Below are positions 22,791 through 37,768 of a stretch of 64,000 bases of DNA, one piece after another. A program made the position numbers and the translations under genes. The stretch comes from Escherichia phage vB_EcoM_G2248: sequence record MK327932.1, one strand, 5' to 3'. The stretch's first letter is position 1, and every line of letters starts with the position of its first letter. Below the pieces are notes generated by a model. It did not search any database. It was not told the DNA's origin and saw nothing but the letters and a program-made list of their open reading frames with translations.

Positions 22791-23272
22791 TTTGCTAAAT
22801 CATTGCAGTATTTTAGTGCCTTAGTTTGAAATTCTGCGCTGTTAAGTTCTTCATAACGGTCATAATCACCGTTTAATGCTGCCTTTCTTGCTTCTTGCTC
22901 TATCTGCATGTCAGACATGATAATACAGCGATCCCGTGCTTTCAGCTTCTCAAGTTGTATAGACTCTTCTTTCTGTTTGCGCAATTCTTCTTGACGCTTC
23001 TTTTCTTCTCGTGCTTTCTCTTCCCGCGCTTCTTTGATTGCATCCTTGAACATCTGCGTTTGTGGTGCTAAACCAACTTTAACGCGATCCACGTCTCGAC
23101 GTTCCATTTTAGAAATAAAGCATGATTCGATCTGATCATCACTTGCATATGCTGCTTTACATTCACGAAGCAAGAAAACCGGATCTGATTTAGCATTCAT
23201 CATAGCTTCCATGTTGGCACAACCAGTAAGCATGAATGCAGCCGCAAGACCAATCAGTTTAATCATTTTCAT
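22787..23272 (-). CDS. Putative lipoprotein (161 aa)
   Basis: N-terminal signal peptide with lipobox (LAAAFMLTGC); charged coiled-coil-like centre; ATGA overlap with the upstream ART gene. Confidence 0.5.
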   Translation of the reverse strand: MKMIKLIGLAAAFMLTGCANMEAMMNAKSDPVFLLRECKAAYASDDQIESCFISKMERRDVDRVKVGLAPQTQMFKDAIKEAREEKAREEKKRQEELRKQKEESIQLEKLKARDRCIIMSDMQIEQEARKAALNGDYDRYEELNSAEFQTKALKYCNDLAK

Positions 23273-24093
23273 TTAGTCACCTCACCGAAAATTGTAAATT
23301 GTCTACGATTCTCATCGCCGAAAGATTCTACTACGTCGTTTACCTTGACGCAAGTCCCGCGCGGTAAAATTACTTCACATTCGCAAGGATTCCATGCAAT
23401 TGACCCAACAACAAAACCTTTATGATCTTTTACGTCAATTACCCATGATACATTACAAGAATGTTGCATCTTTCCGGTCATTGATTCATATCGATTCTCA
23501 CAATAAAGGCTAGTGCTGTTTGATAGCCATCCTCCAAAGATGATCGGTGTCATGCTGGTCGATACAAAGTTTTTAAAGGTAAACTCCTTATCTTCAATGA
23601 TGCGCTCTATTGTCTGAATGTCAAGATGTTGACCGCGATAAAGAGTACCGTTTAACTTTTCGGTTTTATCCATGACACAATCCATCAAATCAACAATCTC
23701 TGATATCTCATCGGTCATGTCTTCTTCCCCTAAGAGAGCACCATTTACCCATTCGTATTGTTCAGATACATAATCACAGATTGCATTATATTCTGCTGGG
23801 GTTATGTTGTTATGTTTGTAATGTTTGAATACATTATCTCCAAAGTCTTCGGAGTGTACTTCATACATCACATTAATGATTTTCTTGACAAATCCATAAT
23901 CTTGTGTCTCGCGCTCAAGGAAGCGGATAACCTTCACATAATCATCAAAGTTAATCTGATCGCTGATCATCTCAGTGATCATGTAACCATTAATACCCTC
24001 AATGTCATATGTTTCGATGTAATTATCCATACGTTCCATCATTGATTCGCGTGATTCTTCTGAAAGACGAAAATCCTGTAATTTCTTGAACAT
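23269..24093 (-). CDS. Alt-like ADP-ribosyltransferase paralog (274 aa)
   Basis: C-terminal region paralogous to the Alt catalytic region (LYRGQ...FKNFVSTSMTPIIFGGW versus LYRGM...FKNYVSTSLAPNIFGGW). Confidence 0.6.
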   Translation of the reverse strand: MFKKLQDFRLSEESRESMMERMDNYIETYDIEGINGYMITEMISDQINFDDYVKVIRFLERETQDYGFVKKIINVMYEVHSEDFGDNVFKHYKHNNITPAEYNAICDYVSEQYEWVNGALLGEEDMTDEISEIVDLMDCVMDKTEKLNGTLYRGQHLDIQTIERIIEDKEFTFKNFVSTSMTPIIFGGWLSNSTSLYCENRYESMTGKMQHSCNVSWVIDVKDHKGFVVGSIAWNPCECEVILPRGTCVKVNDVVESFGDENRRQFTIFGEVTK

Positions 24094-26822: not shown

Positions 26823-27341
26823 TTAGTTATTTTTTAATTGTTCATCTTGCAATAATGCAATCACATGCTGGCGATGTTCTTCCGATTGAGGCACACCGAA
26901 AAAGTTTGTTTTGTAGAAATACTCTAATCGGTCTTCTCGTGTGCTCTCTTCCATCATGATCGCGGGTAGTCCGAGATTTCGGAAACGTCGCTTTTCTGCT
27001 GGCGTAAAATCACTGTAATACAACATAGAATCATCATTACCAGCAATGCTAAACTCATCATTCATGAAGGAGAATATTGCGTTTAAACGCTGTTTACCGT
27101 CCACGATTTCGATCTCATAGCGAGAGCCATCATCAATCTTAGCCATTGCGATAGCACCAACCGGAAAATCATTAATCAGGTTTTCGATAAACATACGTTT
27201 GTTTTCGGTGTCCCATACCAAAGGACGCTGATAATCTGGGTTCATGTTGATATATCCATCTTCTAACCACGCCTCATAAACAGAGATGACAAAGTTTTTA
27301 GTATTGGTATAGTAACGGCGTTTAGGCGTTAAACGGTTCAT
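26823..27341 (-). CDS. DUF262 / ParB-like (GmrSD N-terminal-type) domain protein
   Basis: Motifs DYQRPLVW and VDGKQRLNAI match the ParB/Srx-fold DUF262 signature ((Y/F)QR...W, DG.QR); ATG at 27341 with AGGAGA RBS, TAA-ATG coupling to the upstream gene. Confidence 0.55.
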   Translation of the reverse strand: MNRLTPKRRYYTNTKNFVISVYEAWLEDGYINMNPDYQRPLVWDTENKRMFIENLINDFPVGAIAMAKIDDGSRYEIEIVDGKQRLNAIFSFMNDEFSIAGNDDSMLYYSDFTPAEKRRFRNLGLPAIMMEESTREDRLEYFYKTNFFGVPQSEEHRQHVIALLQDEQLKNN

Positions 27342-27342
27342 G

Positions 27343-27675
27343 TTATAGTCTCCTGAATGGATCATCACGTAAATCAATATCTTTTAAGAACTCATCCCAT
27401 GAATGGCGGATATTGTTCTTAATTCTCCAGATAAGCGCAGGGATTGAACGCTCTCCCATCTGGAAGTATGGATCATATGATCCGTATGCCCAATATGCTA
27501 CTACAATTCCACAATCAGCGCAATAGTATTCTATTTCACTTGCTGGCGACCAAAGTCCATCAATATGATCGGTGATCTTGCTTTCGATGTTATGGCTATG
27601 ACAATCAGGGCAACGGATGCAATGACCTTGTTTATCGTAATTTGACGTTAGCGAATACTTAAACAATCTCATCAT
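27343..27675 (-). CDS. Zinc-finger protein (110 aa)
   Basis: CIRCPDCHSH ... CADCG: two CxxC pairs. Confidence 0.45.
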   Translation of the reverse strand: MMRLFKYSLTSNYDKQGHCIRCPDCHSHNIESKITDHIDGLWSPASEIEYYCADCGIVVAYWAYGSYDPYFQMGERSIPALIWRIKNNIRHSWDEFLKDIDLRDDPFRRL

Positions 27676-34417: not shown

Positions 34418-34891
34418 TTACTCCTTATTTTCGCGCTCGTACTTTTCGAAATAAAATTCTACTGGCTGGTCATGAATTGACAGCAAGCCAAAGCGTTTAG
34501 CCGCTCGCAATCCCATATTGCGCTGAATGTACTTCTGGAAGTTCTCGCGTATACACTTACGCCAGTATTCTAAGCCCATACAGCTTTTATAAAGATTGCA
34601 TTGCACACACGCCGGATTCATGTTATCAAGTATATCATGTTCCGGTTTATGCATTCCTACAACCTTATACTTCCACGATCCATCATCATTACGGGCAATT
34701 CGTCCATTTTCATCATAGACTACCTTTGAGCGTCGCAATACTGGTTTGATGTGGTCTGCGTGCCAGCGATCCCCTAGTTCCTCGCCACAATAGGCACAAC
34801 GTCCACCATATTTCATTTTCAGGATCTGGCGTTGCTCTTTCTTTGACAATTTTTTAGGTTTAGGGGCTTTCGCCCCTTCATTATCACACAT
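34418..34891 (-). CDS. HNH endonuclease
   Basis: CAYCGEELGDRWHADHIKPV ... NMNPACVQCN: HNH motif with two CxxC pairs; overlaps the 3' end of the ligase gene. Confidence 0.65.
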   Translation of the reverse strand: MCDNEGAKAPKPKKLSKKEQRQILKMKYGGRCAYCGEELGDRWHADHIKPVLRRSKVVYDENGRIARNDDGSWKYKVVGMHKPEHDILDNMNPACVQCNLYKSCMGLEYWRKCIRENFQKYIQRNMGLRAAKRFGLLSIHDQPVEFYFEKYERENKE

Positions 34892-36386
34892 CGAATACCT
34901 CTTTTACTGTATTTGCAGTGGTCTTGTCGTAGCGAATACGTTTGATGATCGGGAGAAATAAAGAGAACTCAGGTTCATCTTCTTTACGTGATTTGCTGCG
35001 AATGTACCCGTTGCATGTCATCTCAATGACTTTTCCAATCAGGTTATGACGGTCAGCCCATAACATTTCTCGGTCGAGTTCATTTCGACGATCGAACGGA
35101 ATTACACGTTCAATACCATCATCACCTTTTTCGGTTGTGGTGTCGGTTAATCCCGATCCGGTGTTAGTCATCATTCGTCCGCACGCACTACGGACAGTAA
35201 AACCGCCTACCTTATTAGGATCTTTACTATGCGGATATACATCAACAATTTCAGCGTCGAAGTCAATCACTTCTTTAAATTTAACCTGGTCTTTACTGCG
35301 ACGATCTTCAAATACACCATGTAAATTTTTAAGGATAATACCTTCTAAGCCCATGTTTACATAGCGATGATATACTTCGCGAGCTTCATCTATATTGTTA
35401 ACTACAGTGTTTTCGATTATCTGAACACGAGGATCGTTAAGTTCTTCAACAATCTGTTTTAGTTCTTCGAATCGATCTTTATATTGCTTCGTTGCTTTCT
35501 CGTTTCCGTAATACACATCACGGTCGATAACATCCCAGACAGTATAAACAATACATTGGGCTTCTTCTTTTGGAATAGTTCCTTTAAGTGATTTGTTGAG
35601 GATACCATTTCCGGTCTGACGATCTGCAACAACGGATTCTTTTACTGCTTCCGCTACTGGCGTTAATGGCATTTCCTCTTCTTCAAATATCCATGACAGA
35701 GTACCATCATAAACGCTCTCAACGAAGTTCTGCGCTGGTGTTTGCGAAAGGGTAGGCATATATACCAATTCGCCATCTAGAACAATTCCACGGCCTCGTA
35801 GACGCTCTAAAACCGCAAACAAATCATCAAGTCCTTGATAGGTATTACCTGAGCGGGTATAGATTGCTAATGTTTCCCCGTCAATATCAGCCATACCACG
35901 AGCGCCATCGCTTTTAAGTTGTGCATACGCCGGATACTTGATATTAGCAATAGTCTTATCAGAACATGACGATGCAAGGTGACACGGTTGCTGGGGGATC
36001 AGTTTCTTCCATACCTTGTTTGCAGTGGTAGCGGAACAACCACATTCCAGATCACGATTCAGGACCATCATTGCAACTTTAGCATCATCTTCTGACAAGC
36101 AAGTCAGAGTATCGGTAACTAGCTGTAATGCTGCGTTACCAGTTACTTGACGCGTGGCAAGTTTATTTTTAAAGACCTGTAATGCACCGGATAAAGACAA
36201 TACAGACGAATAACGCGATGGTTTATCGTATTTCTTTACGCCAAACGTAACCTGTTTGCAATATGCCAGATAAAAGCATTCTTTCAGTGTTTCATTGCTT
36301 GCAGATTCTTTCAGGATCTTTTCTTTCAGCGATGTTTTGTCTGTTGCTGCAAGCTGGTTAATGATATTAAGAATTGACATTTTCAC
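34884..36386 (-). CDS. 30: ATP-dependent DNA ligase gp30
   Basis: 500 aa; adenylation motif AQLKSDGARG (KxDG); position and size match T4 gene 30. Confidence 0.85.
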   Translation of the reverse strand: MKMSILNIINQLAATDKTSLKEKILKESASNETLKECFYLAYCKQVTFGVKKYDKPSRYSSVLSLSGALQVFKNKLATRQVTGNAALQLVTDTLTCLSEDDAKVAMMVLNRDLECGCSATTANKVWKKLIPQQPCHLASSCSDKTIANIKYPAYAQLKSDGARGMADIDGETLAIYTRSGNTYQGLDDLFAVLERLRGRGIVLDGELVYMPTLSQTPAQNFVESVYDGTLSWIFEEEEMPLTPVAEAVKESVVADRQTGNGILNKSLKGTIPKEEAQCIVYTVWDVIDRDVYYGNEKATKQYKDRFEELKQIVEELNDPRVQIIENTVVNNIDEAREVYHRYVNMGLEGIILKNLHGVFEDRRSKDQVKFKEVIDFDAEIVDVYPHSKDPNKVGGFTVRSACGRMMTNTGSGLTDTTTEKGDDGIERVIPFDRRNELDREMLWADRHNLIGKVIEMTCNGYIRSKSRKEDEPEFSLFLPIIKRIRYDKTTANTVKEVFDV

Positions 36387-36846
36387 CTCGTTTTGTTAAA
36401 CGTTCACGAATATCATTGAGGATACTACAAAATTCCGATTCAGTCAATATAGTCTTTAACGGATCAGTTCCACCTATGCTATGACGTAATTTCTTATTTC
36501 CTGTAGCGAGTAATGCTTTACAAAATTCTGGGTTATCCCGTGCCATCGTAACAAATGCCAGATGTACCAGTCTGTAATAATGCTCACTCATTCGATGAAT
36601 AGGGCGACCCTGAAAATATAACATGTGATTCTCAATCTTTTCAGTTCTTCCGGTTCTTTTTGCTTTGCCACCGTGCATCAAAAAGATTTCTCTTTGTCTC
36701 TGAGGGTTCTTAAATCTTAGCCCCTGTAAAAATCCTTCTGTGCTGTTAATATCGCAACCAAATAGACGGAATGGTCTTTTATTGAAATTGCTCAATTCAC
36801 CCGATGGATAAGGTCCACCCGCATAGATATCAATTTCAGAAGTCAT
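36367..36846 (-). CDS. NADAR (YbiA-like) domain protein
   Basis: GELSNF...F......EGFLQGLRF and ALLATGNKKLRHS resemble the YbiA/NADAR pattern (LSNF ... E..FQ..KF ... ALL.T....L.E). Confidence 0.55.
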   Translation of the reverse strand: MTSEIDIYAGGPYPSGELSNFNKRPFRLFGCDINSTEGFLQGLRFKNPQRQREIFLMHGGKAKRTGRTEKIENHMLYFQGRPIHRMSEHYYRLVHLAFVTMARDNPEFCKALLATGNKKLRHSIGGTDPLKTILTESEFCSILNDIRERLTKRGENVNS

Positions 36847-37052
36847 TGAAACTAATCTCGCTAATCAGAGAGAACGGATCATAATCGTCATTAGGAATAT
36901 CGATAGTAATCGAATGAGGATTTACCCATACACCAAACTGGTCTTCTTCGGTGAATACTTCGGTATGGATTTCGTGGATGTTTACATTCATAGTTTTCAT
37001 AATAAAATTCCTTAATAATCAATAACTTACAAAATCATATAGCCAAAATATA

Positions 37053-37071
37053 GGCGGGATTATTACCCGCC
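37053..37071 (-). terminator. Hairpin terminator after gene 31 (minus strand)
   Basis: GGCGGGATTATTACCCGCC with a T-rich tract on the minus strand. Confidence 0.55.
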
Positions 37072-37447: not shown

Positions 37448-37768
37448 TTATTTATAAATTTCGACGATCTGCGCTGGAGTCAGCCCGTCTACATTAATCA
37501 GACTATCAAGCCCAAAACTACGGAAACCTTCAACTGCAATTTCATATACTGGCAAAGATGTTTCTGATTCTTTACGCGGTTTTTCAACATTCGGAACTAA
37601 CCACTTTTCGTATGTTTCGAAAGGCATCAGTGCCGGATCTCGCGTAGCGATCATATCTCGGACAGTACCATCTTTCTTAGTAAACTGCAAAGAGTGAGTA
37701 CCGACCGAAAACATTTTCTTTAGTGCTTCACGAAGTGCGATATTATCAACTTGTTCAGTCATTATCAA
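37448..37768 (-). CDS. Hypothetical protein (106 aa)
   Basis: ORF between cd and 31; overlaps the cd stop. Confidence 0.4.
   Translation of the reverse strand: MIMTEQVDNIALREALKKMFSVGTHSLQFTKKDGTVRDMIATRDPALMPFETYEKWLVPNVEKPRKESETSLPVYEIAVEGFRSFGLDSLINVDGLTPAQIVEIYK

Follow-up and report, generated by a model that had tools for sequence, protein, structure and literature searches.

A Krischvirus orthologue of T4 gene 30.3 (adfN), a putative NADAR-type glycohydrolase, upstream of the DNA ligase gene in Escherichia phage vB_EcoM_G2248

The locus

The window analysed here, a stretch of 64,000 nucleotides from Escherichia phage vB_EcoM_G2248 (MK327932.1), carries next to its DNA ligase gene a 159-aa open reading frame (ORF), which occupies exactly 36367..36846 of the minus strand, from ATG to TAA, in the list of open reading frames of the window, and which is the subject of this account as an orthologue of phage T4 gene 30.3. 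The surrounding 4.5 kb are 98-99% identical to Krischvirus genomes (FL15, JSE, RB49, Sf20, and others). The features that make up the immediate locus are the following:

36367..36846, minus strand: gene 30.3/adfN orthologue, a stand-alone phage-type NADAR (putative ADP-ribosyl-guanine glycohydrolase) of 159 aa (PF08010, PHROG 652, synteny)
34884..36386, minus strand: gene 30, coding for the ATP-dependent DNA ligase and following 30.3 in transcriptional order (PF01068, E = 2.8e-22; PHROG 114, E = 1.4e-141; RB49 annotation)
36836..37000, minus strand: 54-aa ORF preceding 30.3, named 31.-1 in RB49 (PHROG 15277, no assigned function), with a good AGGA ribosome-binding site
37053..37071, minus strand: GC-rich hairpin followed by a T-run, terminator-like, after gene 31 and upstream of the block formed by the 54-aa ORF, 30.3 and 30 (the homologous site in GEC-3S is annotated "terminator")

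Since the two are both minus-strand genes, the ORF precedes the ligase gene in transcriptional order, and its placement "immediately downstream of DNA ligase" in the initial annotation of the window holds in plus-strand coordinates only. The ligase itself is 41% identical to T4 gp30. The RB49 annotation puts its start at the ATG at 36380, which has a GAGG just upstream of it, and counted from this ATG the TAA stop codon of 30.3 (36367-36369) lies 14 nt inside the ligase frame; if the ligase starts at the GTG at 36386, the overlap of the two genes amounts to 20 nt. At its other end, 30.3 is overlapped by the 54-aa ORF by 11 nt, and because the stop codon of the latter falls 8 nt inside 30.3, the two are probably translationally coupled. 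The 54-aa ORF also precedes 30.3 in GEC-3S, FL15, Whisky, GoldenSnicker, and a metagenomic relative (L011), and a tblastn comparison with the T4 proteins from the corresponding region gave no equivalent of it.

Downstream of the hairpin there are three overlapping ORFs, namely the 54-aa ORF, 30.3, and the ligase gene. In the interval from the hairpin to the beginning of the 54-aa ORF (position 37000), no sequence made a convincing sigma-70 promoter, and the promoter scan returned 25 sigma-70-like sites as compared with 19.8 ± 4.2 in shuffled sequence, i.e. no excess. The block as a whole is on the minus strand and is syntenic with T4 early genes. Its base composition shows no anomaly at 30.3 (GC of 0.377, with 0.37-0.44 in neighbouring segments), and recent foreign acquisition of the gene is not indicated.

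Orthology with T4 gene 30.3

The protein can be aligned with T4 gp30.3 over its full length (38% identity, E = 3e-30) and is 99.4% identical to gp30.3 of RB49, from which it differs in a single amino acid, D104 (codon 36535-36537), the five other Krischvirus genomes having N104 in what is a variable column of the family. The gene order supports the same assignment. In T4 it reads 31-rIII-30.9...30.4-30.3-30.2-30.1-30, and in the window and in RB49 it reads 31-(54 aa)-30.3-30, such that the gene occupies the same slot between gene 31 and gene 30 in all three. When the T4 proteins of the region were searched against the window by tblastn, matches were obtained for 30, 30.3, 31.1, cd, pseT, and pseT.2/.3, and none for 30.1, 30.2, 30.4-30.9, or rIII, so that 30.3 belongs to the limited number of small ORFs in this region that have been kept across the family.

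The distribution of the gene is wide. Homologues were found by tblastn in 1,509 phage records, 1,501 of which cover at least 80% of the query, and the phages in question are T4-like ones of Escherichia, Klebsiella, Shigella, Aeromonas, Acinetobacter, Vibrio, and other hosts. The metagenomic relative mentioned above encodes a protein that is 68% identical and has an identical gene order from rnlA to the ligase gene. Among the six Krischvirus orthologues the dN/dS ratio ranges from 0.02 to 0.16 (from small counts), and the gene is under purifying selection in this group. Together with the Pfam and PHROG matches described below, the breadth of the tblastn hits and the dN/dS values confirm the reality of the ORF far beyond chance.

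Assignment to the NADAR superfamily

The initial annotation had recognized a NADAR-like gene in this ORF by three motifs, and all three are confirmed in the translation, with GELSNF at residues 16-21, FLQGLRF at 39-45, and ALLATGNKKL at 111-120. The protein is matched by the Pfam model PF08010 (Phage_30_3) with 131.9 bits against a cut-off of 36 (E = 1.9e-38, positions 2-138 of 138 of the profile) and by PHROG 652 with E = 4e-45. The connection of this family with the NADARs is supported by three lines of evidence: a comparison of a 58-sequence gp30.3 family profile with a profile of the YbiA family, which gave 98.0% probability and E = 2.4e-13; the 38% identity to T4 gp30.3; and the existence of several family proteins that score on both PF08010 and the generic NADAR model PF08719. 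The predicted structure has the YbiA-like α+β fold, with E. coli YbiA as the best structural match at approximately 20% sequence identity. The NADAR-like reading of the gene is in this way upheld, and made more precise, as the T4 orthologue is the published NADAR enzyme AdfN. A profile search for DUF1768/NADAR, which the initial annotation had named as a check, came out in two parts, the generic model remaining below its threshold (see below) and the PF08010 match being strong, with the NADAR link supplied by the other evidence just given.

Active-site residues

The residues that matter for the activity of characterized NADARs were located in the protein by alignment, the family column counts referring to 170 domains from a library-wide search (1,664 clusters, E ≤ 1e-3), in which 163 proteins, comprising the best representatives and earlier matches, were examined, and the alignment denoted A4 comprising 58 sequences. 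The corresponding features are:

36736..36738, minus strand: E37, codon GAA, equivalent to T4 AdfN E36, YbiA E48, and E43 of the Phytophthora nicotianae NADAR (PnNADAR), distal-ribose coordination
36715..36717, minus strand: R44, codon AGA, equivalent to T4 K43, YbiA K55, PnNADAR K50, and E. coli C7 NADAR K95, a lineage-specific K-to-R change
36658..36660, minus strand: K63 in the A-K-x-x-G-(R/K) loop, in the column of PnNADAR K75 and E. coli C7 NADAR K115
36481..36483, minus strand: H122, codon CAT, in the last strand, the hallmark of phage (gp30.3-type) NADARs, where YbiA-type proteins have Glu and DarG1-type proteins Asp
36376..36441, minus strand: C-terminal α-helix, residues 136-157, intact (predicted structure; alignment reaching the T4 C-terminus)

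The column of E37 is Glu throughout the 58 sequences of A4, and among the 170 family domains it is Glu in 162; it is likewise invariant in the alignments A1 and A2. K63 falls in a column that is Lys in 147 of the 170, with A62-K63-R64-T65-G66-R67 aligned to A-K-K-L-G-R of PnNADAR. H122 stands in an L-R-H-S-I-G motif, its column being His in 158 of the 170 domains and invariant in A4. Its register differs by one column depending on the method, as an ungapped count from LLATG (+7) leads to E125 of PnNADAR and of YbiA, and hhalign leads to H126 of YbiA. Because the sequence alignments disagree in this way, the equivalence of H122 with the Glu of YbiA-type proteins is taken from the structure-based papers, in which the His of phage NADARs is given as the equivalent of that Glu (PMC11543638, PMC11125620, PMC12945103). 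As to the catalytic residues whose absence from an alignment would, according to the initial annotation, speak against a NADAR, E37, H122, and K63 are in place, and the Lys corresponding to T4 K43 is replaced by R44.

Across the 41 columns that are at least 80% conserved, the protein agrees with the consensus at 38, the exceptions being T36, R44, and F78. The column of R44 contains Lys in 159 and Arg in 6 of the 170 domains; the carriers of Arg are the window protein, the Krischvirus cluster, the 68%-identical relative, and one bacterial protein (P0001, P0002, and P0142 are among them), and the remaining cases are two second domains of two-domain proteins, in which the Glu is also lost. Neither R44 nor F78 varies among the six Krischvirus genomes, and both recur in the 68%-identical relative. 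A possible equivalence of position 78 with the pyrophosphate-binding W89 of PnNADAR, which a thin hhalign alignment had placed one column off, was dropped, since in a richer profile-profile alignment the hairpin of residues 75-84 counts as an insertion and the two residues are not aligned.

Published function of the family

T4 gene 30.3 was renamed adfN, for anti-DarT factor NADAR, by Johannesman et al. (Nat Commun 2025, PMC11825919), who showed that its product is a guanine-ADP-ribose DNA glycohydrolase that is both necessary and sufficient against DarTG1. T-even phages with full-length 30.3 resist DarTG1, and RB69, in which a frameshifted allele has lost the last helix, is sensitive; deletion of adfN renders T4 and T2 sensitive, and ectopic adfN of T4 rescues RB69, the C-terminal helix being required for AdfN (PMC11825919). 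The purified protein strips ADP-ribose from DarT1-modified DNA, and does so more weakly with the substitutions E36A and K43A (PMC11825919). AdfN does not counter DarTG2, and T4 AdfN does not neutralize DarT1 in uninfected cells; every phage NADAR in the published tests acts on guanine-ADP-ribose and counters DarTG1 (PMC11825919). An independent transposon screen found 30.3/adfN to be essential only on DarTG1 hosts (bioRxiv 10.1101/2025.11.20.689424).

The T4 NADAR has also been reported to hydrolyse guanosine-ADP-ribose on both DNA and RNA, but not thymidine-ADP-ribose (PMC11125620, PMC11833690, PMC12945103). One of these papers (PMC11125620, Toxins 2024) describes its construct "T4 phage NADAR (gp30.3)" as residues 1-208, which conflicts with the 152-aa T4 30.3 ORF in NC_000866 (L001, 4308-4766), and for this reason the T4-specific statements made here rest mainly on Johannesman et al. 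In NADAR structures, E43 of PnNADAR and an acidic residue of the last strand, E125 (Asp in DarG1-type and His in phage proteins), are found at the distal ribose, K50 contacts the phosphates and the adenine, and the C7 residue K115, corresponding to K75 of PnNADAR, is needed for rescue in vivo (PMC11543638).

Proposed mode of action and its standing

The orthology with T4 30.3, the synteny, the NADAR fold, the conservation of E37, H122, and the C-terminal helix, and the purifying selection are direct results of the present analysis, and the step from them to function is made by analogy, in that a 38%-identical orthologue would be expected to do the same as T4 AdfN. With a probability that can be put at roughly 0.78, the ORF is the Krischvirus (RB49-type) orthologue of T4 30.3/adfN and acts most likely as T4 AdfN does, against DarT1. 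In the proposed mechanism, the phage DNA is ADP-ribosylated at the N2 of guanine by DarT1, the toxin component of the host's DarTG1 toxin-antitoxin defence system. The 30.3 product, which by analogy with T4 AdfN would be made during infection, would then hydrolyse the N-glycosidic bond between the ADP-ribose and the guanine N2, following which the replication of the phage DNA could proceed. E37 and H122 likely flank the distal ribose, and binding of the diphosphate/adenine and of the nucleic acid is likely due to R44 (Lys in most relatives) and K63, with the C-terminal helix of residues 136-157 likely completing the fold. The counter-defence role proposed in the initial annotation, removal of ADP-ribose from guanine against DarT, finds its support by analogy in the published anti-DarTG1 function of the T4 orthologue.

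Several observations weigh against this interpretation. On the side of the profile searches, the score with the generic NADAR model PF08719 is only 15 bits, the cut-off being 35.1 (E = 0.03), a PADLOC scan of the protein returned nothing significant, and NCBIfam yielded only a sub-threshold match to "NADAR family anti-phage protein" (E = 0.099); the last two results carry no information either way. With respect to the phage, the full activity of T4 AdfN depends on an additional T-even factor (PMC11825919), and Krischvirus lies outside the Tevenvirinae; the published DarTG1 panel (Bas35-47, T2, T4, T6, RB69) includes no Krischvirus, the anti-DarTG1 experiments are reported for AdfN of T4 and T2, with none found for the RB49-type protein, and the literature search found no paper linking Krischvirus or RB49 with DarTG or AdfN. 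Finally, there is the pocket itself, in which Arg stands at the position of the T4 K43 Lys, and F78, the second highly conserved family residue to be changed, replaces the Trp of a 94%-Trp column. The relevance of the former is illustrated by the E. coli C7 NADAR, whose K95R variant keeps guanine-ADP-ribose hydrolysis in vitro but loses DarT1 rescue in vivo (PMC11543638). By the same comparison the K-to-R change at position 44 would be compatible with catalysis, and its consequence in vivo is uncertain.

Alternative explanations

It is these substitutions that give rise to the best of the alternative explanations, which nevertheless has to be considered improbable, namely that K44R, with W78F, has weakened or shifted the specificity of the protein, making it a poor anti-DarT1 factor that may act, e.g., on guanosine-ADP-ribose in RNA or against another DarT or a pierisin-like toxin. 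The fixation of both changes in the lineage, with the 68%-identical relative included, the failure of C7 K95R in vivo despite its activity in vitro, and the ability of the T4 NADAR to take ADP-ribose off guanosine in RNA as well would all be in keeping with it. Set against this are the conservative nature of a change from Lys to Arg, the fact that Arg supports hydrolysis in the C7 NADAR, the agreement with the consensus at all but three of the highly conserved columns, the strong purifying selection, which argues for a retained function, and the uniform guanine-ADP-ribose and anti-DarTG1 activity of the phage NADARs in published tests. A remodelling of the Krischvirus AdfN pocket that amounts to a functional shift, whether toward another toxin or substrate or toward independence from the T-even helper factor, is accordingly doubtful; if it did occur, Krischvirus AdfN would represent a natural specificity variant of a counter-defence enzyme.

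The other three alternatives are minor ones, to which the biochemistry and genetics in the literature examined lend little or no support. The first, that the protein degrades soluble ADP-ribose-derived molecules such as immune signals or by-products of RNA repair and not macromolecular adducts, was proposed for phage NADARs on genomic grounds before their biochemistry was established (PMC9503650), and it would suit the position of the gene in a block of early type that also encodes enzymes of RNA/DNA end repair (ligase, PseT, RnlA). It is very unlikely in view of the T4 experiments, which show DNA de-ADP-ribosylation and a DarTG1-specific phenotype, and no soluble substrate has been shown for the gp30.3 family.

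The second concerns the ADP-ribosyltransferase (ART) genes of the phage, from which the initial annotation had derived a recurring theme of ADP-ribose chemistry. The Alt gene and the second ART paralogue that it listed are indeed present, and both match PF03496:

24172..26223, minus strand: Alt-like protein, 683 aa (PF03496 ADPrib_exo_Tox match)
23269..24093, minus strand: Alt paralogue, 274 aa (PF03496 ADPrib_exo_Tox match)

That 30.3 erases the ADP-ribosylation carried out by these transferases might be suggested by their occurrence in the same window, 10-13 kb away, and by the early expression of NADARs together with ARTs in T4-like phages (PMC9503650). The gene is, however, not adjacent to the ART genes, activity of NADARs on protein ADP-ribosylation was not found in the literature examined, NADARs are inactive on phosphate-linked ADP-ribose (PMC11833690), and DarTG1 alone accounts for the phenotype of the T4 deletion, all of which makes such a role highly improbable. 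The last and least probable alternative, a YbiA-like N-glycosidase acting on intermediates of the riboflavin pathway, has in its favor that E. coli YbiA is the best structural match but founders on the replacement of the subfamily-defining Glu by His, the low identity, the missed threshold of the NADAR/YbiA Pfam model, and the lack of a riboflavin gene context.

Significance

The gene is already known in the sense that it is annotated as 30.3 in RB49 and that the function of the family was published in 2024-25, so that its identification as an AdfN orthologue carries little weight as a discovery. It is of use for annotation, as the Krischvirus records inspected all give it as "hypothetical protein" and could be relabelled as putative AdfN/phage NADAR. 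In addition, any effect of the natural K-to-R variant on efficiency or specificity could help to explain why NADARs that are similar in vitro differ in vivo.

Other observations on the family and on neighbouring genes

The PF08010 domain also occurs outside phages. Of the 163 proteins examined, 76 exceed 200 aa in length, and ten of the long ones include fusions with BspA-type leucine-rich repeats, with prolipoprotein diacylglyceryl transferase (Lgt), with an FtsW/RodA-like membrane protein, and with D-Ala-D-Ala ligase (Ddl), as well as a tandem PF08010. The proteins to which these observations relate are P0073, P0109, P0086, P0111, P0154, P0014, and P0142 (loci L003-L006). The protein P0142 is encoded on a contig of 788 kb, a length that points to a cellular genome, and has no annotated ART nearby; the Ddl-PF08010 fusion adjoins genes for NUDIX, histidine-phosphatase, and NYN proteins. 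Gene calling may have produced some of the fusions as artefacts.

Directly after the ligase gene, with an overlap of 8 nt, there is a free-standing HNH endonuclease gene (34418-34891, minus strand; PF01844; PHROG 2118, E = 2.7e-54), which the RB49-like genomes inspected have as well but which is missing from the T4 locus, gene 30 being followed there by alt.1 and alt; it looks like a homing-endonuclease insertion. On the other side of 30.3, the window encodes a homologue of gp31.1 (37448-37768, minus strand) with a WYL_2/Sm-like SH3 barrel (PF10902, E = 1.7e-9), which is 36% identical to T4 31.1. A 184-aa ORF located a few hundred bases from the Alt-like gene (26823-27377, minus strand) contains a GmrSD_N/DUF262 domain (PF03235, E = 5e-20). 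Such a domain is typical of type IV restriction enzymes.

Comparison with known systems

The closest known system is AdfN of T4, with which the window protein shares the PF08010 assignment, the slot between genes 31 and 30 (Straboviridae), a stand-alone core NADAR fold of approximately 155 aa, the catalytic Glu (E37, equivalent to T4 E36), the phage-type H122, and the C-terminal helix. It differs from T4 AdfN in having R44 where T4 has K43 and F78 in place of the family Trp. The two loci differ as well, as the window lacks 30.2 and 30.1, so that 30.3 directly adjoins the ligase gene and overlaps it, the gene contains no internal 30.3' ORF, and the phage is a Krischvirus and not a member of the Tevenvirinae.

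The differences from the DarG1 antitoxins, represented by the E. coli C7 NADAR and the Geobacter lovleyi NADAR (PDB 8bat), are larger. The window protein is without their N-terminal extension and has His for the catalytic Asp of the last strand. Its gene is an orphan in that no DarT1 toxin gene adjoins it, the neighbours being the 54-aa ORF and the ligase gene, and the nearest ARTs in the window are of the Alt type (PF03496) and more than 10 kb away. With respect to YbiA (PDB 2b3w) and the Phytophthora nicotianae NADAR (PDB 8bau), identity is approximately 20% and His occupies the position of the Glu. The window protein further differs from YbiA by a β-hairpin insertion at residues 75-84, and where E125 and H126 are invariant in the YbiA family as part of an E-H-T motif, it reads R121-H122-S123 with no Glu, such that the role of YbiA in riboflavin metabolism is not expected of it. 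By all sequence and structure criteria except the K-to-R change, the protein is a member of the gp30.3/AdfN family, and it is neither of the DarG1 nor of the YbiA type.

Other phage factors take part in the same conflict by different routes. AdfA (T4 gp61.2) counters the ADP-ribosylation of phage DNA by DarT as well, but as a binder of the toxin and not as an enzyme, the AdfN proteins of Bas32 and Bas60 belong to other NADAR clades, and AdfM, the macrodomain protein encoded by T4 tk.4, acts against DarTG2, i.e. on thymine.

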